Positions 14,761 through 48,622 of a stretch of DNA of 64,000 nt are shown piece by piece; positions within the stretch are counted from its first letter, which is position 1; each line of letters starts with the position of its first letter. The DNA lies in NCBI GenBank assembly GCA_964016885.1, contig OZ024747.1, positions 27,714,001 through 27,778,000 of the forward strand, given 5' to 3'. Both the position numbers and the translations under genes were made by a program. Under the pieces are notes generated by a model. It was not told the origin of the DNA. It saw only the letters and a program-made list of their open reading frames with translations, and searched no databases. The stretch comes from Eledone cirrhosa (Eukaryota).

Positions 14761-15083
14761 ATGTATGTATGTATGTATGTATGTATGTATGTATGTATGT
14801 ATGTATGTATGCATGTATGTATGTATATGTATGTATGTATAGTTAAAACTTAGACGGGAACAAAAACAGAGAGGCAGTACAAATAAGAGTTTATTAGGTT
14901 CACGCTTTTGATATATATATATATATTGGAATAAATGCTCTGAAATAGCGATATATATGTGAAGATAGACATAGAATATTCGAAAATATTCTGTATGTTT
15001 ATAATAAACATTTTGAAGACCTAATCGCTATAGAATAGAATACGTCACGTATTACAATTAGATTCTCGATAAAAGCAAGGGAA

Positions 15084-15126
15084 GTAACCTACGCGTTTCA
15101 TTCTTATTAGAAATCTTCAGGATTAC
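15084..15126 (-). ncRNA. Type-I hammerhead ribozyme (family D, copy 1)
   Basis: GTAATC-CTGAAGA-TTTCTaataAGAAT-GAAACGCGTA-GGTTAC, enclosed by a 16-bp inverted repeat ATTCTCGATAAAAGCA/TGCTTTTATCGAGAAT. Confidence 0.85.
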
Positions 15127-15393
15127 ATATCCAGTGCTTTTATCGAGAATGACACAGCTAGAGACTTATAGAATACTTAGCTGTGTACAGGAACTGGTTT
15201 GAAAGAGCGGTTGCCGGTCCGGCAGAAATTAGAAATTGGAATAAATGCTCTGAAATAGCGATATATATGTGAAGATAGACATAGAATATTCGAAAATATT
15301 CTGTATGTTTATAATAAACATTTTGAAGACCTAATCGCTATAGAATAGAATACGTCACGTATTACAATTAGATTCTCGATAAAAGCAAGGGAA

Positions 15394-15436
15394 GTAACCT
15401 ACGCGTTTCATTCTTATTAGAAATCTTCAGGATTAC
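15394..15436 (-). ncRNA. Type-I hammerhead ribozyme (family D, copy 2)
   Basis: Identical to copy 1, 310 nt away. Confidence 0.85.
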
Positions 15437-15820
15437 ATATCCAGTGCTTTTATCGAGAATGACACAGCTAGAGACTTATAGAATACTTAGCTGTGTACAT
15501 ATATATCGCTATTTCAGAGCATTTATTCCAATTTCTAATTTATATTTCTAAATATATTCCTTATCTGATATTTTGTAACTAACCCTACATAGATCGATAA
15601 CGAAATATGCGTACGATGTATTATTATCACCTAGAAACGATCGTAAAGCAGTGAAGTATATTTCTAATGACTTGAATTTTTATTTCATTGTTTTAACTTA
15701 TATCATGACTCTGTTTTCCTTCTGATGTTTTATTGTTTCCCGAGATTTATTTTAACCTACAACATTTTCAACAAATGGATTACATTGAGTTCTTCATGCA
15801 GACTAGACCCCAGAACTTTC

Positions 15821-18216: not shown

Positions 18217-18704
18217 CCTTAGATCAAAGGTTCTTAACGGGGGGCATATGCACCCCCAGGGGGCGTTTCGGATATCCTGGGGGCGTTTGAGAGCAAGGGG
18301 GCATTAGGGGGGTGTTTGGAGCTTTGGAGTGCACTGGAAGGCTCTTTACTTTGGTAAGTTTTATAAGCCATATTTGTATGTCTTTGAGACAGCCAGTGTA
18401 AATGCATTTGAATGAGCATGCAGACAGCATAACTATGGTCTGACCGCAGCTGTGAGCAGGTGTGCAGGCGTGTTTAGACATTACCCGGCAATTGAGATCC
18501 TAACAATGGAAAAACCCACAGTCAACTGGGTCAAGGACACTTCAATCGCAGCCAGTTAGAATCTTGTCTTTTCTTCACCGATAACAATGTATTTCATGTC
18601 TGAAGTTATTGACTCAACCGTAACGAGTTAACACTATGTAGATCTATTTTATTTCCTATTGTATAAATAATATTACAAATAAAAAAAAGAAGAAAAAACA
18701 CAGA

Positions 18705-19174: not shown

Positions 19175-20236
19175 TGTATCATGTGCTACGGATGACGCTA
19201 GAGCAATGGTCGGCCAACATAAGGGTTTCGTCACTCTTCTGAAGAGAAAATCTATCTGTATTTGTTGTTCATTGTGTCATTCATCGACAACACTTGGCTG
19301 TGAAGAAACTCAGCAAGCCACTGAGCAAGTCCTTGCAGGTGGCCCTTGATGTCATCAATTTTATCAAACGGCATTCCCTCAATGAAAGAATTTTCCGGCA
19401 ACTGTGCCAAGATAATGATGAAGAATTCGTCAAGTTGCTCCTTCATAATGAAGTAAGGTGGCTTTCAAAGGGCAAGTGCCTTACTCACTTCTTTGAACTG
19501 TTTGACTCTATCATTGAGTTTCTGCGAGGACGCAACACAGAACTGTACAAGAAAACCCTCGATGTGAGGCAAAACTGCGCCTACCTCACCGACATCGTCG
19601 ACAAATGAAATAGCGTCATTTTGGCTTTGCAGGGGAAGAAGATCACCTTGCTTAAAGCAAGGAATACTGTGAAAACATTCCTGGCCAAATTGAATGTCAT
19701 CGAAAGGAATCTTTGTTGACGGGAATTCTATAATTTTCCTAGTGTCGCCAATGTTCAAAACATTGTAAGCGATGACCAACTCCAAATTTATACCACTCAC
19801 CTCCGTGCGCTACAAGACAACATGAGAGAACAGTTTGTCGATCTTTTGCCGATAGACATTCCAATGTGGGTAGCAGATCCCTTCATAGCTAACGTCGATG
19901 ATTTGGACGTTATATTTCAGGAAGAATTCATTGAACTTCAAGCAGATGACATGATCAAAATTAGATTTCCCAAAATAGGTGAACCCCTTTTTTGGATGCA
20001 AGAGGAAATTCAGTGTCGATTTCCACACCTACATGCAGAGGCTAAGAGATTTGCTCTGCCTTTTCCAAGCTCATACTTAGTCAAGAGGAGGTTTGGTGCT
20101 GTTTCCAGCCTTCACAGTAAGGCTCGCAACCGCTACAATGTGATTACACGTGGAGATCTCCGGCTACATCTTACGAAAAATCCAGCCTGACGTCAAAGAG
20201 TTAGCTAGACTCTATAAAGTTCAAGGGTCCCATTGA
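19175..20236 (+). pseudogene. hAT transposase pseudogene (catalytic and dimerisation halves; ZBED/Buster-like)
   Basis: TDDARAMVG, HCVIHRQHL (CxxH), HNEVRWLSKG, PFPSSYLV..F, KARNR...DLRL. Contains stops and frameshifts, and the N-terminus is missing. Confidence 0.9.
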
Positions 20237-30578: not shown

Positions 30579-30842
30579 ATTATATATATATATTATATAT
30601 ATATATATATTATATATATATATATATTATATATATATATTATATATATATATATATTATATATATATATATATATAAATACAATATCGGAGAAAGCTTT
30701 TTAACGATACTCCGGCCAATTTCCAACTCACTCAACAAACATTAGGAAATAAGTGATTATATTCCTAATTAAGCGTTCGGTGTGCTAACTAAAAGTATTG
30801 CGTGGAAAATTGGCTGTATTATTTCATATGAGACATATCGAA

Positions 30843-32876
30843 TATATGCCGAATATCAGTTGAATATTGGGAGACAAAATCCAGGTGTCGGAGTTCTCTC
30901 GGTGAATGTCGATCAGGTTTGGTACGGAACGCATAAATTAATGGTTTATGGTCCGTGTAGATCACAAAATCTGATCCTTCGAGCATGTGCCGAAAATGCT
31001 TAACCGAAAGATAGGTTGCCAAGAGTTCGCGGCCAAAGGTACTGTATTTCGTTTCTGCCGGTTGCAACCGCTTAGAAAAGAAGGACAAGGGTTGCCACAC
31101 GCCGTCGACATGTTGTTGTAGAACGCCTCCAACCCCCGTGTCTGATGCGTCCACTAGCAGCGAAAGAGGAGCGCCAGACCTGGGGAAAACGAGCATGGAA
31201 GCGTTTGCCAACATTTCCTTCAGGCGGTTAAAAGATGTTAATTCTTCCTCGTTCAGAGTGATCTCTTCGTTTTTGCGAGTCCAGTTACGAAGAAGGTCCG
31301 TGAGGAGTCTGGCTGCGTCGGAACAATGAAGGATAAACCGCCTATAAAAATTCACCAGACCGAGGAATTCACGCAGTTTCCGAGTGATTGTAGGTGCAGG
31401 AAAACTGTGGATAGCTTCTATTTTCTCGGGAAGTGGACGAATGCCGTCTTTATTGATGATGTGCTCGAGAAAGGACAGTGAAGGAACGCCGAGAAGGCAC
31501 TTGCTGGGGTTGATGATGATACCGTACTCAGCCAAACGTCGGAAAAGGAGATCTAAGTGCTTCTCGTGTTCATTCTCAGAAGCACTTGCTACCAGTACGT
31601 CGTCAATATACGCGTATACGAAGGGTAGATCGCGTAACACGGTGTCAATGAACCGTTGAAAAGTTTGTGCAGCGTTGCGCAGACCGAACGGCATTCGTAG
31701 GAATTCGAATAAACCGAACGGTGTTGTGATTGCGGTCTTCGGAATGTCTGCAGGCTCCATGGGTATTTGGTTATATGCACGCACCAGATCTACCTTGGAA
31801 AAGATACGTGCGCCTTACAGAGAGGCAGAAAAATCGTGCAGGTGAGGTACAGGGTAATTATCGGGCACTGTAGAATTGTTAAGTGCACGATAATCCCCAC
31901 ATGGTCGCCAATCATTCTCGTTTTTTTTTGGAACAAGGTGTAGGGGTGCAGACCAGTTGCTGGAGGAAGGGCGAATGATTCCGAGGTCCAGCATGTGTTG
32001 GAACTCCTGCTTGGCGATTCTCAATCGGTCTGGAGGCAGTCTCCTTGGTCGGGCAGCTGTGGCTGGTCCCTTTGTCTCGATGTGGTGCGTGACACTATGC
32101 TTAATGGGACCATCCTTAAATACCGGGCGAGTGATGTCTGGGTATTTCTGGAGAATGCCGTTGTACTGCGAAGGCTCTTACTGGCACATTACAGGGCTCA
32201 CTGTGGATTGCGTCGTAAATACACCTCTCACAGTGAGGTTTGTGGTGGTGTCGATAAGCCTCCGGTTCTTCATATCCACCAGAAAGTTGAAGTGGTGGAG
32301 AAAATCGACTCCTAGGATCGGGGTCGGCAGGTCTGCCACGACAAACACCCATTGAAAACGCCGCCTCAGGCCTAAATTGAGGGTCAGAGACTTCTCCCCG
32401 AAAGTCGGAATTGACGATTGATTCACTGCCTGCAGAAAGGACGGGGTTGGGTGTCTTTTGCCCGAGATCAGTGAAACCGGAATAACACTGACCTGGGCTC
32501 CTGTATCCACGAGGTATCGGATGCCTGTCGCCTGGTCGTTAATAAAAAATAAACGACTTTTCTTTTCAGTACCAGGGGTGAACGTCGTCGCCAGGCCCTG
32601 AGTGGCATTCCGGAAAGAGCACGGGGCTTTGCACTTAGATGCCTGTGCGCCGAAATTTGTGTGATACCAGCAGAGGTTGCCAGGTACACGATTTTGACTG
32701 GGACTACTGGATCTTCGACTGTGAAAAGGCCTGGATCGACTGTTGCTGCGTCGCCGGTGTGTTTGAAAGGTCAAGTTCTCTACTTGATTCGAGAGGGCTT
32801 TAATTTGACCAGCCCGCTCTCTGATCATAGCCCGCAGCTCTGAAATCTCGGCCTCTGTCGTTTGTGACATGTCCAT
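30843..32876 (-). pseudogene. Ty3/Gypsy gag-pol pseudogene (CsRn1-like): Gag C-terminus, protease, RT, RNase H
   Basis: One frame with two in-frame TAA stops (32178, 31815). Motifs: CHCC Gag CWYHTNFGAQASKCKAPC, protease LVDTGAQVS, RT YIDD, RNase [15 protein letters not shown]. The sequence breaks after DIRHI and has no integrase. Confidence 0.95.
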
Positions 32877-32916
32877 ATTGATATTTTCTTAGGTGCTGTC
32901 TAGTTGCGCGTTCGAC

Positions 32917-33771: not shown

Positions 33772-34522
33772 ACCAAGCTAAGCGGGTCAAACAAACAATA
33801 TATATATATATATAATATATAATATATATATATATATATTGTTTGTTTGACCCGCTTAGCTTGGTCGCTTTTTTGGCTTAGGTGGTTAATGGCTTCTTAA
33901 CTTAACCATCGTCTCAGTTTTGTATGGCCTTTTTAACTTATGTTTATAGCTCTGGTATCTTCGTATCCATTGAGCGCTTGCCAACACAATCGGAAGTTGC
34001 GTTTCGCTAATTTCTACTCGCCGCCGAAATGCGATTCTCGCATTTCGGCGGCGAGTAGAATGAAACGCGTAGGTTACTTCCCTTGCTTTTATCGAGAATC
34101 TCAAATTGGAATACGTGACGTATTCTATTCTATAGCGATTGGGTCTTCGAAATGTTTATTATAAACATACAGAATATTTTCGAATATTCTATGTTTGTCT
34201 TCACATATATATCGCTATTTCAGAGCATTATATCCAAATATATATATATATATATGATAATAATAATAATAATAATAATGTTTTCTTTATTAACCACAAG
34301 GGTTCACATAAAGTAGACATTAAGGACAGTACAGGACAATACAGGACGGTACAAATGGGCATTTCTGCGTGTAAAAAAACAGAGGTTGAAATAAAATAAC
34401 AAAGAAAAATTCCCCAATAGGGGGGAGACTTCCAAGGGACATTTGTGGAGAAAGCCCATTAAAAGACCACAGTGGCCCTGACCACCAGGGCAAGTGCCCT
34501 CTCCCAGTTTTCCACCTTTAAT

Positions 34523-37500
34523 TTACAGACACATACTCAGAGAAGGCCCATTCATTCGGGCCATACTTGCTTCTCTCACCCATCTTTCAACAAAATGCTG
34601 GGAAGAGAGCACTTCCCTCTCTACCCTGATTTTCCTTTTCAAATGAAATTTGAAAAAGTTAATCAGGGCATCACCGAAGAGGTAAGTGCTCGTCTTCAGC
34701 CCTTTCAAACGTGTCCACCATACTATCTCTTTCGCCATGGCCACCAGACAGATAAAAACTGCCTGCCCTTCCAGGCTAAAGGAAGGGGGCGGGGCAATCC
34801 TCACGATGGACTCAGCTGATAGCTGGATCCGTCCTACACGTGACAGCAGGTGTTCGACATAAACCCACAAGTCAGCAATGCTCGGACACTGGACGAGTGC
34901 GTGCAGGACGGTTTCGTCGCCCTGCGCGCATCTCGGACATGCCCGGCTGACGGCACCTCCATGCCTGTAGAGTTTATCCCGAACTGGCAAAGCTCCTCGG
35001 TAGCACTGCCAGGCCAGGGATTTCTGGAAGTTGTCCATAGGCCCCGGCCCGAAAGTCCTTCCGAAGAGATTGGCTAGTTGATTTTCGTCGACGCCTAGAG
35101 TTTCTCCAAGTACGTCGTCGCTCTTCCCCTCCACTAATCCCCTATAGAACGCCAAGGTGGAGTTTCCACCGATCACATTGCCCGATTGGTCGAGGGCTGT
35201 GAGCGCCTGAAGACATTCCAGTCTCCAAGCGCTCCCTCTCGGTCTTCGCTTGACCCAGGACTGCAGCTCCGTCAAGGAGACGAGCTGGGGAAAAACGCGT
35301 CTTGCAAACGGCGACCACACCTGATCACCGTCGAGGAAGAGGTGGAGATGTCGTAGCCTGAGCGCGTGTCTGCGCATCATCAGCCACGGCATGCCCAGCC
35401 CTCCACGCAGCGGGTGTTGACAGCAGATGGACCGCCTGACCATCGGAGCGCGTCCCTTCCACAAGAAGCGAAAGAGCAAACGCTCCAGCGCAGTCAGGCG
35501 GGGCTTAGGACAAGGTACGACGGTCAGGCGGTAGTAGATGACGGATGCGATGTACGCATTCGCCACCTCCGCTCGACCTTTCAGGGATAGCTTCCTCTCG
35601 GCCCATTTCTGGGTGAGAGAAGCCACCCTGCTCGTCACCTCGTCCCAGTTTTTGTCCGTCTGGAGGTCTGGACCGAACCAGACCCCTAGCAATTTAACCG
35701 GTCCGTCCGTCCAGCGCCCGACGACGCTGTTGGACGGCATGGACCTGCCTCTCCAGGTGCCGAGCTGCAGGCCCACTGACTTTTCCTGGTTGATCATTGC
35801 TCCTGTCACCGCTTCGTATTCTCTTAGTGTAGTGCCGATCGCCTCGATGTGTTTGGCGTTCGACACCACTACGGTGACATCGTCGGCATATGCTGACACG
35901 GATCTTCCGCATCCTAGTTCGCGCGGGACCCCCCTCAACGTCTCCAGCTTGTGCAGTAATGGCTCGAGAGTCAATACGTACAATAGGGACGAGAGGGGAC
36001 ATCCTTGGCGGACCGAGCGCATGATGTTGAACGGTTCCGGAAAGGTGACCGTTCACTCTCACTACAGAGCAGATGTCGCTGTGCATGGCAGCGATCCAGC
36101 CTCTGAAGACGGGCCCAAAGCCAGCCGCCCTCAGGACTGCCGTTAGGTAACGATGGTCGACCCTATCGAAGGCTTTCGACTGATCTAAATTGATCAAAGA
36201 CCCACCCGTGCCAGGTTCCCTAGCTACCCTCTCTACGATGTATCGCATGAGGTGGAGGTTGTCGTGGATGGATCTGTCGGGAATGGCGCATGTCTGTGCC
36301 TCTCCCACCAGACCACCAACGACAAGCGCCAACCTCTTTGCTAGCACCTTGGCCAAAATCTTGAACTCTGTGTTTAGCAGAGTTATGGGCCTAAAATTAT
36401 CTATGTCATCCCCCTTGTTCGGATCCTTTCTCAGCAGCGCCACCGCTCCTCGGCTCACAGAGCTGGGAATTCTCCCGTTCTGTTGCCAGTTGCAGTAGAC
36501 GTCCGCCAAGAGGCCTCCGAACAAGTTTGGCATTTGTACGTAAAGTTCATAGGGCAGACCATCCAAACCAGGCGATTTACCCCTTGTGCAACTAGTCATT
36601 GCATCCCGTACTTCAGCGGTTGTTATCGGCTTTTCGCAACACTCCGCCTCAGTGGCCGAAAGCCGCGGCAGTCCGTCGAGGTAGACACTAAAGTCCATCC
36701 CTCGATCCGGCCCGCCACTGCCCCCGAACAGTTGAGCGAAGTGTCGCTGAAAAGCTTCACACATTTGCCCGGGATCGAGTAGCATGCGCCCGTCGTGGTC
36801 CACCAAAGACCGGATCGTGGCTTTGTTGCCACGACGCGCCTTCGCCACTCGGGCCCATTGAACGGCTTTCGTCCCCTCGTGTCTGAGAGCACGCACCCTA
36901 GCTCTGACAACGCAGCCTTCGTGCTTTGCATTGAAGAATTGGTCAAGGGCCAATTTCGCCGCAAGTACGTCGGTCGCGATGCCTTTGCTAAGCGCCTCAT
37001 CTAATTTTCTAACTAATTCTCCCTCTGCTCTATTTTTCTCTATTGCTAAAGTCTTACTAAACCTAATGGACTCTATTCTAATTGCTCTTTTCAGAGCAAA
37101 CCACCACTTGTTGTTGACGATGGCCCCCGTCAACGCCCGCTTAACTAGTTCGCTAATCCGGTCTCTGTAGGCCTTGCGCGCTGGTAAGGACGCGTTTAGC
37201 TTCCAGTAGCCTGGTCCTCGTCTATGAAGCCTATCTAAGTCAAGCACACAGATCACGAATTTGTGGTCCGTGTAGCTGACTATCTTGAATTGTGGACAGC
37301 CTATGCTAGACCTATCTATTTCCCTACAAAATACTCTATCTAGATATGATCTGGATGACCCTATGCGATTTGTCCAAGTCCACATTGGTACATTCGGGAA
37401 ATCCATTCGGTACCTGTCAGACAGTTCAAAACGTCTGAGCAGGTTGGTGAGACTCTTGCACCCTCCTTCCCTATCCACTAATCCCACACAATCCCAGCGT

Positions 37501-37943
37501 GCATCTAAGATCCCGTTCCAGTCGCCCACTAACACTAAAGAGCGGGACGTTCCAAGAAAAGTCTCCAGACGCCGGAAGAAATCAGGCCGCCCTGCTCCTG
37601 TCGGGGCATAGACGGCCACTAACCTGAAAGCTTGCCCGTCTCCGCTGGTCACGTCCAGCACCACCAACTTACCTTCTGGGTCCAGGAAGATGGCCCGTAT
37701 GGCAAGATCCAAACCTCTCCGAAAAAGCACAGCAACTCCTCCCCCCGATCCCGGACGGCTGGGAGATGCGTACACATCGTAGCCGCCGAAGATCGGTGCG
37801 AAAGCCTGTGCTTCGGAGATTCTGGTCTCACTGATGGCCACTACATCTATGTTTAGTGACCTGAGGTCGTTGAGCAGGTGGCCCTGCTTCCATGACGACC
37901 CCAAGCCACGCGCATTTATGCTGCCTATTCTGAGTGAGGTCAT
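34523..37943 (-). CDS. LINE ORF2: APE endonuclease + reverse transcriptase + CCHC finger; one +1 frameshift near 36037
   Basis: SINARGL, SETR, GDWN, YLDR, TDH (APE); KSPGLDG, FRPITLLN, KAFDRV, RQGCPLS, YADD (RT); CPRC..ETVLHALVQC. Removing 1 nt joins ...GHLS to EPFNIMRSVRQG and gives ~1139 aa. Confidence 0.93.
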
Positions 37944-37977
37944 GTTGAAAAGGAGTGGAAAAGATGGGAAAGACCAC

Positions 37978-39892
37978 TTACCTTACTTCTCGTAGGGGAA
38001 GGACGGTTTTTCCATCCTTTTGACTGCTTGTGGCCTCCTCAGGAAGGATGTCCTTATAAATCCTCCTGGAGAGTGCTTGTCGGAAGTCTCCGATGTCTTT
38101 TGGGAATTTTTGTTTTAGTGTCATGTACGTTTTCTGTGTGATGCGAGTGATTTGTATGTGTGGAGGTGGTGTGAATTTTTGGGTTGTTGTGTAGTCTTTT
38201 TCTGTGATGCTGGTGTTGTGTTGGATGTAGTGTAATAATTGCTTGTTGTTCAAATTTAATGCTGTGTAGTGTGTATCGTTTTGGTTGTTTTGTTTTGTTT
38301 GCGTTTGTTGTGGGTTTGTTTCTGTTTCGCATTTTGGTGACTTTTGTGGTGTAGGTGATGGTGGTGTTGGAGTTAATGATGGTGATGGTGTTGGTGTTTG
38401 GGTTGATGGGTTTGGTGATGCTGGTGTGGATGGTGGCATATCTGTCCTAACTTTTTTGTTTCTTAGTTTATTTGTTTCCCTCTGTATTTTGTTTTTGGAG
38501 GAGGAAGGAAGAGAATTTTTTCTTTTTTGGTTTCTTTTTTTTTTTTCCGGATATCGTTTCCCACTCCTCGTCGTCACAATCTGTCTCCAGTTGTGATAGG
38601 CCGGGGAGTGGAAAATCCTCCACAGCCGTTAGTTTTGGTTGTGGTGTGGTGGATGGTGTAGGCGCTGGTGCTAGTTCTGAAGCGTTGGGTGGTGGTGGTG
38701 TTGGTTTTGCTGGTGGTGGTAGTGGTGTTGGTTTTGCTACTGTTGCTGGGGTTGTTGCTGTTATAGTTGCTTCTGTTGTTGCTGCTACAGTTGTTGCTGC
38801 CATCTCTGCTACTGGTGGTGTTGATGGTTGTGTCACTGGGGTGGGTAGGAGAGGTGGCCTCAATCTTTTAGCCTGAGGGCAGAAAGCCCTTAGGTGGGTT
38901 CCTTCACCACAAACGACACACCTAGGTCTTCTGCCCTCGACAATTACCGTGAGGTGGCTGCCGTCAGTGAGGTCTATTACCTCTGGGATCTCCTCAATGC
39001 TTTTTTGGTCCGCTTGGATTAGGAGCTCCATCCCAGATCCGGACCAGTTTTCCTGCTTTTCTTTTGCTATTGCTATTATTTTCGTGTTGGCTTCGATGCC
39101 GGCGAGGACAGCCGCTATTAGCCAGGGAATTTCGATGGCCGGTGGAACGCGGGTCACCCTGATCTTTACGAGTCTCTGGCCACAATAGCTTGGGACGAGT
39201 GTGAGGTCGTCACTTTTTAATGGGGCCATGGAGTGTTCTCTAGCCTCCTCTGGTGTTTCAAAGAACACATCCACGGTTCCATACTTTTGCCCACGTCTGA
39301 TGTGGGTTTTTCTTGCCCACACATGTCCCAAAGCTTTTTGGATTTGGGACTCGGATGCCCGTTCCACTCGGCGCGATTTTACATTTATTGTTCTATACGA
39401 CACGGTGCATAGGCGCCGATGCTCCATTTTATTAGGTGGGGGGGGGCTGACCCTGTACCCATCTTTCTTTACCATTTGTTTCGCATTTTCTAAATCCTCT
39501 TGAGTTACCGTGAATGCTTCGAATTGTTTTGCCACTATGGCGAAACTGAGGGTCGGTTTTATAATGTCATTGTTGTTGTTGTTGCTATCGTTATTTGTGT
39601 TAATATTAATTTTAGTTTCAGTTGTGGTGGTGGTGACGTCAGTCGTCTTTGGTGCGGAAGAGTCCATTTTGCTTAATTTCATTTCGACATCACGAGTTAA
39701 TTTATTTTTTTCTTCTTTTGTTTCTGTTGTCGCGGTGGTGGTGGGGGTGGTGGTTGTCGCGGTGGTGGTGGTGGTGGAGGCTTTAACACCTGCAGTCATT
39801 GGTAATGGCGGGAAATGAATGTCTGCCTGAGACAAATTTAAAATATTGCTACTGCTTATATTTTTTTTTTGTGTTGGCAAACGTAGTAACAT
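37978..39892 (-). CDS. LINE ORF1 (Gag-like, CCHC knuckle, Pro/Thr-rich); one +1 frameshift near 38535-38550
   Basis: CVVCGEGTHLRAFC knuckle. ORFs 38468-39892 and 37978-38577 overlap at TCCGG-A12, and removing 1 nt gives ~637 aa ending 34 nt before ORF2. Confidence 0.8.
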
Positions 39893-41663: not shown

Positions 41664-42342
41664 AAAAAGATAGCCCCGATAATAAACACATTAAAAGCTA
41701 CAACAATGTGGAAGACATCCATGTACATAATATAAAAGAGTACTGGTGGAATGTTCCAGTAAAAACCCCAATAAAATGTAATCATAACAGACCAGATATT
41801 ATGATATGGGACAGGGAGAAGAAAACATGCACAGTAGTGGAAATTAGCTGCCCAGCAGATGCCAATATAATATCAAAGATTAGTGAAAAGGAGAATATTT
41901 ATGCAGAACTGATGAGAAATCTGCAGATACTCCACCCTGATTACACCTTCAGATTTATGCCTGTGATTATTGGGGCACTGGGATATGTTAGTAACTGCCT
42001 CAATACAAATCTTGAGAAGCTAGGCTTCACAGGAACAGAAAGAACACAACTAGTTAGGAAATGATAAGTACAATCCATTAATGGAACAGTAAAAATGTGT
42101 AAAACATTCCAAAAATTTTGCATCTAATAACTGCATATACACATGTACAGATACAAAGCATATACACATGCACACATACAACTCAAAACATCCACATCCA
42201 CACATACAATAACATCCATATCTACACATGCATACATACATACATACATATCTACCTAGTTGATATGTATGTATGTCTTGTGTCTATGTTAGAAACCGAC
42301 TCTCTCTATTGGTAAAACTTTGTGAAATTATAAAACCAGAAG
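41664..42342 (+). mobile_element. 5'-truncated R4/Dong-clade LINE (restriction-like endonuclease C-terminus + 3'UTR)
   Basis: WWNVPVKT...[10 protein letters not shown]...VVEISCP...EKENIY...PVIIGALG. Premature stops at 42062-42067, natural stop at 42125-42127. (CATA)n lies on both sides. Confidence 0.85.
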
Positions 42343-48549: not shown

Positions 48550-48622
48550 GGGGAATTAGCTCAGATAGTAGAGCGCTCGCTTAGCATGCGAGAGGTACCG
48601 GGATCGATGCCCGGATTCTCCA
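48550..48622 (+). tRNA. trnA-AGC: tRNA-Ala (anticodon AGC)
   Basis: 73-nt cloverleaf. Acceptor stem GGGGAAT/ATTCTCC with G3:U70, anticodon loop TTAGCAT, eukaryotic-Ala T-loop ATCGATG, TTTT terminator at 48637-48640. The D-loop has A in place of G18. Confidence 0.92.

Follow-up and report, generated by a model that had tools for sequence, protein, structure and literature searches.

A high-copy hammerhead element in Eledone cirrhosa with the sequence features of a non-LTR retrozyme and the insertion anatomy of Penelope-like elements

Introduction

What kind of element repeats a hammerhead ribozyme every 310 bp without any protein-coding frame, and how does it move? The question arose from a 64,000-nucleotide stretch of the Eledone cirrhosa genome (assembly GCA_964016885.1, contig OZ024747.1, positions 27,714,001 to 27,778,000 of the forward strand; hereafter the window, to which unprefixed coordinates refer), which is AT-rich, microsatellite-dense DNA from an assembly of 3.0 Gb. 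A preliminary description of this DNA had proposed a tandem there as a retrozyme candidate, and our computational follow-up supports that proposal through sequence-level features shared with metazoan non-LTR retrozymes. A two-armed insertion anatomy of the type left by Penelope-like elements (PLEs), absent from that description, tells us most about how the element moves.

The array in the window

The exact 310-bp period extends over 265 bp (14925-15189 is identical to 15235-15499), and the main arm amounts to a full unit plus 265 bp, or 1.85-1.9 copies (Table 1). We number the unit along the minus strand, with q1 at 15499. The tandem had been placed at 14926..15541; its period holds, but the array comprises only 1.85 units, and the last 45 bp, a perfect inverted copy of 15226-15270, had been overlooked as a second arm. 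Exact repetition and folding both confirm two complete minus-strand hammerheads, with the predicted cuts at the sites originally given. The 16-bp perfect stem around each is likewise real (pair probabilities of 0.78-1.0 by folding), as are the two further hairpins that had been named.

Table 1. Coordinates of the 310-bp element and associated features in the window, with examples of the sister family elsewhere in the genome.
Feature	Position	Strand	Remark
Main arm, 310-bp element, 1.85 tandem units	14925..15499	-	outer end q265, long end class
Hammerhead 1, type I, palindromic helix III	15394..15436	-	predicted cut 15400/15399; from sequence and folding
Hammerhead 2, identical to hammerhead 1	15084..15126	-	predicted cut 15090/15089; from sequence and folding
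Predicted 310-nt cut-to-cut monomer, candidate circular RNA	15090..15399	-	deduced from both cut sites
16-bp stem closing hammerhead 2	15062..15150	-	15135-15150 pairs with 15062-15077
Identical 16-bp stem around hammerhead 1	15445-15460 with 15372-15387	-	
Internal AT tract, q232-239	15261..15268, also 14951-14958	-	short arm end class elsewhere in the family
Tail, q240-265, between the two end classes	14925..14950	-	central motif shared with the sister family (67% identical)
Inverted second arm, 45 bp, q230-274	15497..15541	+	3-nt microhomology, head-to-head with main arm
(AT)7 tract at 3' end of main arm	14911..14924	.	likely target site
Shortened copy, q86-264, 94.5% identity, older 312-bp subfamily	34057..34237	+	ends at (AT)n
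Sister family examples	L052:2433-2870, L131-L160		

A diverged copy that had been reported at about 34055-34235 also exists, with slightly shifted limits, but it lacks the 5' half of the ribozyme; it lies on the strand opposite to the array and is preceded by a 23-bp fold-back hairpin (34012-34060).

Both flanks of the array (14848-14911 and 15549-15800) are truncated pieces of other high-copy repeats, other copies of which run on into hammerhead-like motifs. Elsewhere in the window lie pieces of Gypsy-type LTR retrotransposon protease, RT and RNase H frames (30819-32888, minus strand) and a LINE of very high copy number, which has a gag-like frame and an APE endonuclease/RT spread over two frames (34523-39892). 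Fragments at 19243-20190 resemble hAT-family transposase, and one at 41740-42064 resembles the restriction-like endonuclease of R4/Dong-type elements.

Predicted ribozyme structure and folding

The hammerhead spans q64-106 and consists of a 6-bp helix I with one U.G pair, CUGAAGA, a 4-bp helix II over a U.U pair, GAAA, the palindrome ACGCGU, and the GUA triplet, with the cut predicted after q100. Its CUGANGA/GAAA/NUH core, its helix I of 6 bp and helix II of 4 bp, and its helix III of 1-2 bp with a palindromic loop are those of the canonical metazoan type I hammerhead, as defined with helix lengths and palindromic loop in the available text of PMC4209133. The same text calls the G10.1-C11.1 pair highly conserved; at this position the window has U.U, and some young haplotypes have A-U. 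The U.U pair leaves activity possible, because the axolotl hammerhead HHR_Amex2 is also reported with U.U at the base of helix II (PMC7229834). Plant LTR retrozymes have a type III hammerhead, two LTRs and PBS/PPT, whereas this element has a type I hammerhead in head-to-tail units. A scan of the whole window against Rfam at the gathering threshold gave a single match, a tRNA (48550-48622, plus strand, 55.2 bits), and no hammerhead.

The unit (310 bp, 34% GC) had been described as free of open reading frames, and in a 4-unit concatemer the longest stop-free frame is indeed 59 aa and the longest ATG-started frame 30 aa. A simple pattern search for Pol III A and B boxes and the octamer found none. 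Folded as a circle, the unit is predicted to reach -69.0 kcal/mol, compared with -46.0 +/- 4.5 kcal/mol for 100 shuffles (z -5.1); the antisense strand also folds better than its shuffles (z -5.7).

Cleavage as a dimer, raised in the preliminary description, gains computational support: for the window haplotype, which is among the family's poorest predicted folders, the double-hammerhead fold is predicted to lie 3.3 kcal/mol above the ensemble, compared with 8.2 kcal/mol for two single folds. Folding of a read-through transcript that includes the inverted arm widens the dimer gap to 14.3 kcal/mol from 3.3 kcal/mol without the arm; the arm is predicted to pair with the first unit and so to disfavour the dimer. 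From its two cut sites, the window copy could release a 310-nt monomer running from 15399 to 15090.

Family size and relatives

A 32-nt ribozyme core pattern with six free positions matches the genome exactly at 18,493 sites, and its reversed form at none, which excludes chance. The best 40 of 241 candidates from a DNA search with the unit were scored, and their full units are 98-100% identical. Flanks differ between loci and are unrelated, and together with the core count this establishes the dispersal that had been suggested from the diverged copy. At 310 bp per core, the family would span several megabases of the genome.

The identity of the 265 duplicated bases might point to an assembly duplication, an explanation to which we give practically no weight. 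With 18,493 core matches genome-wide, the array is no assembly slip; identity over 265 bp is unremarkable at the subfamily's private change rate of 0.22%, similar arrays with biological junctions occur at many loci, and the window's ribozyme haplotype itself has 961 exact copies in the genome.

Two relatives are also abundant. A 312-bp subfamily has 1,088 candidates. A sister family with a 315-bp unit, 67% identical to the 310-bp unit, has 2,735 candidates, and its copies are about 94% identical to one another. The sister family keeps the ribozyme core and the U.U pair, while helix II, helix III and the outer stem are rebuilt with other letters; its helix III is 3 bp long and non-palindromic, with a GUU triplet.

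We also observed a third related family of short palindromic head-to-head elements (L034:2490-2590, L089:7591-7687, L092:5216-5308), whose hammerhead has a 4-bp helix III and a helix II resembling that of the 310-bp family. An unrelated hammerhead-like repeat has four copies in the window (8279, 13679, 45313 on the minus strand, and 57883 on the plus strand) and occurs in L086 and L092 as well; its helix II carries a long insert and its helix III an 8-nt palindrome, and it is probably another dimer-type ribozyme family.

Judged by its sequence, the 310-bp family is, we are strongly confident, a high-copy and recently spreading non-LTR retrozyme.

Insertion anatomy

Our main sample comprised the 40 best-scoring loci and the window; of these 41, 32 were clean two-armed loci, 8 were single-armed (one of them at a contig edge), and 1 was complex and was excluded. 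The arms head away from a central junction, and (AT)3 occurs within 12 nt after 67 of 76 arm ends. These outer ends fall into a short class at q232-247, mostly q239 in the internal AT tract, and a long class at q260-274, mostly q265, which places the long end 21-35 nt beyond the short end at the AT tract. Among the clean two-armed loci of this top-scoring set, 30 of 32 have one long and one short end. The exceptions are the window, where the inverted arm also ends in the long class (long/long) and has no adjoining (AT)n, and one locus with a short end and an end of another kind.

As a check for bias, we took the first 17 loci of contig C1 by position instead of by score. Thirteen were two-armed and four single-armed, and all 11 readable two-armed loci were long/short; the other two were unreadable, one ending in a 33-nt fold-back and one running past the fetched stretch. 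Three loci added from the 312-bp subfamily contributed two two-armed insertions, both long/short. Pooled, the rule holds at 43 of 45 loci (p = 3e-11 against 0.5). In the sister family, 20 of 29 loci were two-armed, with the rule kept in 12, broken in 3, and unclassifiable in 5.

The inner (5') arm ends, by comparison, are scattered over the unit. Only 2 of 75 lie at the ribozyme cut site, which rules out run-off at a cleaved 5' end as the main route. Junctions between arms are clean in 25 of 32 loci, with a mean microhomology of 2.4 nt compared with 0.75 nt for random joins; seven carry 3-107 inserted bases, and two of the 32 are symmetric fold-backs. The arm with the long end exceeds the other in length in just 12 of 30 two-armed loci, so neither arm is a simple fold-back copy of the other, and a fold-back in which one arm templates the other is ruled out by these arm lengths and by the asymmetric junctions. 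Arrays reach 23.4 units per arm. In 41 + 20 loci, the arms are pure head-to-tail units, with no RT or GIY-YIG frame inside or beside them. Target-site duplications cannot be delimited, because (AT)n lies on both flanks (read by eye). Beyond the (AT)n, short inverted duplications, either of the flank or of a neighbouring PLE end, were seen at L047 and in the right flanks of L050, L108 and L116.

Inverted terminal repeats arise at each locus, as they would in a DNA satellite or foldback (MITE-like) element spread by extrachromosomal DNA circles or a transposase, with the hammerhead incidental, and on contig C14 DNA amplification did multiply one palindrome-mutant copy 19 times. The inverted repeats of this family, however, have random inner lengths and two unequal, PLE-like outer ends; their 5' ends spread across the whole unit, and the sister family rebuilds the RNA structure with other letters. 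We regard such a DNA element as highly improbable.

Coding Penelope-like elements in the genome

A genome search for GIY-YIG domains gave 10,597 candidates, of which 150 were listed and 85 loci were compared with the unit. All eight frames that we scanned match RVT_1, and six of them also match GIY-YIG (E 0.01). There are at least six GIY-YIG PLE families (L081, L052, L084, L083, L087, L091), and the L081 locus (G000:C1:145869000-145877500) retains a 938-aa stop-free frame with RT and GIY-YIG. The two longest near-complete PLE frames have a CxxxxCxxC motif ahead of the C-terminal GIY-YIG, a motif given for Neptune and Nematis in the available text of PMC8557442.

These coding elements share the anatomy of the 310-bp family. 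Three PLE families show two 3' end classes at (AT)n, and, read by eye, all 10 head-to-head pairs in these families whose two ends could be read are long/short (5 in one family, 4 in another and 1 in the third), a count that leaves out seven loci with an unread end and one that is not head-to-head. In one PLE family, the long end reads TTTCTAAT followed by (AT)n, the same 8-mer as at q265-272 of the unit. Beyond this, the 3' regions of the PLE families examined are unrelated to the 310-bp unit, and the hammerheads of the L081 and L052 families have an ACCGGU palindrome and a U3/A8 core, a variant described in PMC4209133. Among the 85 GIY-YIG loci compared, out of the 10,597 candidates, none had a PLE terminal repeat with homology to the unit. 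An apparent pseudo-LTR (pLTR) match behind the L052 GIY-YIG frame proved to be a nested sister-family copy, which 2 of the 30 loci in that PLE family carry.

Since no PLE 3' region in the 85 loci is homologous, the partner PLE is inferred from anatomy. On this basis we hold with good confidence that a PLE mobilises the family; the enzyme is likely of the Neptune/Nematis type and acting in trans.

The same anatomy, being that of PLE ends, would also be produced if the unit were the detached pseudo-LTR of an autonomous PLE yet to be found, with the arrays being 5'-truncated insertions of that PLE. Xenopus retrozymes do match pLTRs (Li, Clavereau and Pollet, bioRxiv 10.64898/2026.07.22.740005), and just 85 of the 10,597 GIY-YIG candidates were examined. 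We nevertheless find this improbable: there is no coding sequence between or upstream of the arms in 41 + 20 loci, and in the PLEs examined the 3' regions are unrelated and any hammerhead found has the U3/A8 core.

Clonality of the arrays

At 15 young C1 loci, 116 unit pieces totalling 30,849 bases hold only five deviations from the locus haplotype, in a count that leaves out the terminal q225-270. The 17 C1 loci yield 14 haplotype lists, a few of which reflect junction artefacts or partial cover. Variants confined to one locus are fixed through both arms at L267 (12 pieces), L271 (9 pieces) and also L016. None of 128 junctions has an indel at the cut site, and the marker q259 is uniform in 40 of 41 loci of the window's subfamily. 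Identical private changes were found in 38 of 331 comparisons within an arm and 19 of 164 across arms, versus 31 of 12,983 between loci; the pairs lack independence, and one locus contributes many. Private changes are not depleted in the ribozyme core (6 of 132, with 5.1 expected), as expected for changes that arise after insertion.

A new change that fills a two-armed array of many units implies a one-unit bottleneck followed by amplification, which matches rolling-circle copying of a monomer circle as proposed in PMC7229834. Three 340-nt contigs of the unit, one in each of runs X4, X5 and X6 and of the length of a closed 310-nt cycle, were rejected as evidence of circles or expression; a collapsed DNA tandem explains them, because the window's LINE is also collapsed there at similar depth.

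Older arrays contain imperfect periodic variants, with period 10 in one locus and period 2 with accumulating changes in another. The former (G000:C5:55922000-55936600, L096 + L031) has a 23.4-unit arm in which two changes recur at exactly 10 units, one of them absent from the terminal unit. Imperfect periodicity cannot be explained by a fixed circle, so multimeric templates or later DNA duplication contribute, and a strict single-circle origin of the older periodic variants is ruled out.

These periodic but imperfect variants agree with an alternative in which a PLE primes twice on a linear, largely uncleaved multimer, the hammerhead is weak or a protein-assisted relic, and arrays lengthen later by DNA duplication. 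At one locus, a 5-bp deletion occupies an identical unit index in each arm, which implies a template of several different units. The 2 of 75 5' ends at the cut fit uncut templates as well as circles, ribozyme cleavage is dispensable for PLE insertion in vitro (PMC11167929), and in the available text of bioRxiv 2026.07.22.740005 one of nine predicted Xenopus dimers was cleaved and eight were not. However, linear copying cannot lengthen arrays, nor can it spread a fresh point change through 9-12 units so that both arms become pure for it; young arrays with as many as 17 units are near-invariant, which leaves little time for two separate DNA expansions, and lineage changes are concentrated in the ribozyme (below). 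We therefore judge a linear template unlikely and favour a circular monomer as the probable template.

Ribozyme changes across subfamilies

Within-array divergence is 0.48% in the 312-bp type (a figure inflated by alignment noise near q254-262), 0.22% in the window type and 0.016% in the young C1 type, which orders the subfamilies by age from the 312-bp type through the window type to the young C1 type. Relative to the window haplotype, nine changes are common to at least two young loci, and eight of the nine fall inside the 43-nt ribozyme (p = 1e-6 if placement is uniform); among the eight, the one at N7 may represent the ancestral state. In run X1, which was not core-selected, six of seven listed unit differences are also in the ribozyme. 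All of the ribozyme changes are at tolerant positions: N7, loop II, U.U to A-U, U.G to U-A, and wobbles. Relaxed constraint on the ribozyme combined with strong constraint elsewhere would give similar clustering.

By secondary-structure estimates only, the cost of reaching a hammerhead-ready fold falls from 4.0-4.1 kcal/mol in old haplotypes to 2.3-2.7 and 1.3 kcal/mol in younger ones, and that of the double hammerhead from 3.3-3.6 to 0.7-1.9 kcal/mol, always 4-5 kcal/mol below two single folds. The younger haplotypes are thus predicted to fold better than the window's.

Mutants of the core are also present. Twenty-one G5-mutant cores occur at 20 loci and never in a pure array; the loop-position control for this count is weak, with 14 mutants at 8 loci and one apparently pure 3-unit two-armed locus. 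There are 32 palindrome mutants, none of them 310-spaced and one with a different palindrome; 19 are in one DNA-amplified cluster. This cluster (G000:C14:25021445-25322758), with its mutant cores at irregular kilobase spacing, is a larger DNA repeat that carries the element. It may explain the strand bias of the exact ribozyme haplotype copies (325/636).

If propagation passes through one circular RNA, successive subfamilies would be selected for a better-folding ribozyme. We put forward tentatively, and with some doubt, that a dimeric PLE enzyme copies a single circular RNA in both subunits and that ribozymes are selected in this way for better folding.

Proposed mechanism

The insertion anatomy, the copy number, the end rule, the clonality, and the matching anatomy of coding PLEs are direct observations. 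As a whole, we think them probably best explained by a retrozyme whose transcripts are cut to monomers, circularised, and pasted into (AT)n by a PLE acting in trans. Multimeric transcripts would self-cleave as double hammerheads through the ACGCGU palindrome, and a host ligase would close the 310-nt monomer. The PLE protein would then nick each strand of an (AT)n target, and reverse transcription would start from the two 3' ends, from one at the tail end (q260-274) and from the other at the AU tract (q232-239). Each cDNA would go round the template between 0.1 and more than 20 times, and microhomology would join the two cDNA ends, giving head-to-head arms of one haplotype. Every RNA step in this scheme, and the identity of the enzyme, we infer.

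If the scheme is correct, each insertion derives clonally from one RNA molecule, the genome records the whole retrozyme cycle, and natural ribozyme evolution has been caught across some 18,000 copies. How retrozymes come to be copied into a genome, and how PLEs come to make tandem and inverted one-tailed insertions, are open questions in the papers cited here. The family offers thousands of short, very young insertions with readable ends, junctions and unit haplotypes, and makes the proposal that PLEs mobilise retrozymes through circles directly testable with a 310-nt substrate and two predicted start sites. The genome further provides near-intact PLE frames and age-ordered ribozyme variants with predicted rising activity.

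Comparison with known systems

In L1 twin priming, two target ends prime on one RNA, leaving an inverted 5' arm and junction microhomology. The family differs in that its priming sites are fixed and 21-35 nt apart in a repeated unit, both arms are multi-unit, and two arms are the rule, not a minority.

Metazoan non-LTR retrozymes of coral, mussel and axolotl, and newt satellite 2 (PMC7229834; Cervera and de la Pena, 2020), are like the family low-GC tandems, with units of 170-400 bp, one type I hammerhead per unit, no ORF, and a short palindromic helix III with a predicted need for dimers. That study showed circles and proposed circle-templated tandem cDNA, whereas the circle of the present family is a prediction. 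Two-armed insertion, fixed long and short ends, (AT)n targeting and per-locus clonality are features of the family that the available text of PMC7229834 does not describe. Strict long/short pairing, two-armed clonal retrozyme insertions and cephalopod retrozymes were absent from the reports that we found, in a search with subscription journals mostly outside its scope.

EN+ PLEs of the Neptune and Nematis type (Craig, 2021, PMC8557442; PMC3846280; PMC11167929) resemble the family in their partial tandems, inverted 5'-truncated copy, 30-40 nt tail at a single end, targets that are AT-rich or (TA)n, a hammerhead lying 140-180 nt before the 3' end, and two start sites. The family differs from them in having no ORF, up to 23 units per arm, and no sequence homology to the PLEs examined. 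In the available text of PMC11167929 (Frangieh, 2024), a PLE protein predicted to be a dimer cuts and extends both strands, and two internal start sites define the PLE tail. Arkhipova (2013; PMC3846280) explains head-to-head PLEs by self-priming; only 2 of 32 junctions in the family are symmetric.

The inverted copy, one-sided tail and two start sites of PLEs are therefore already known, and a PLE origin of retrozymes has been argued in bioRxiv 2026.07.22.740005. With two consecutive units bearing complete hammerheads, the family falls within the definition of a retrozyme used there. The available text of that preprint mentions neither tails, nor head-to-head structures, nor molluscs. Li, Clavereau and Pollet reach the same conclusion as we do, a PLE as the mobilising partner, from co-occurrence and pLTR homology, mainly in vertebrates; in Eledone cirrhosa it comes from shared anatomy in the absence of homology.
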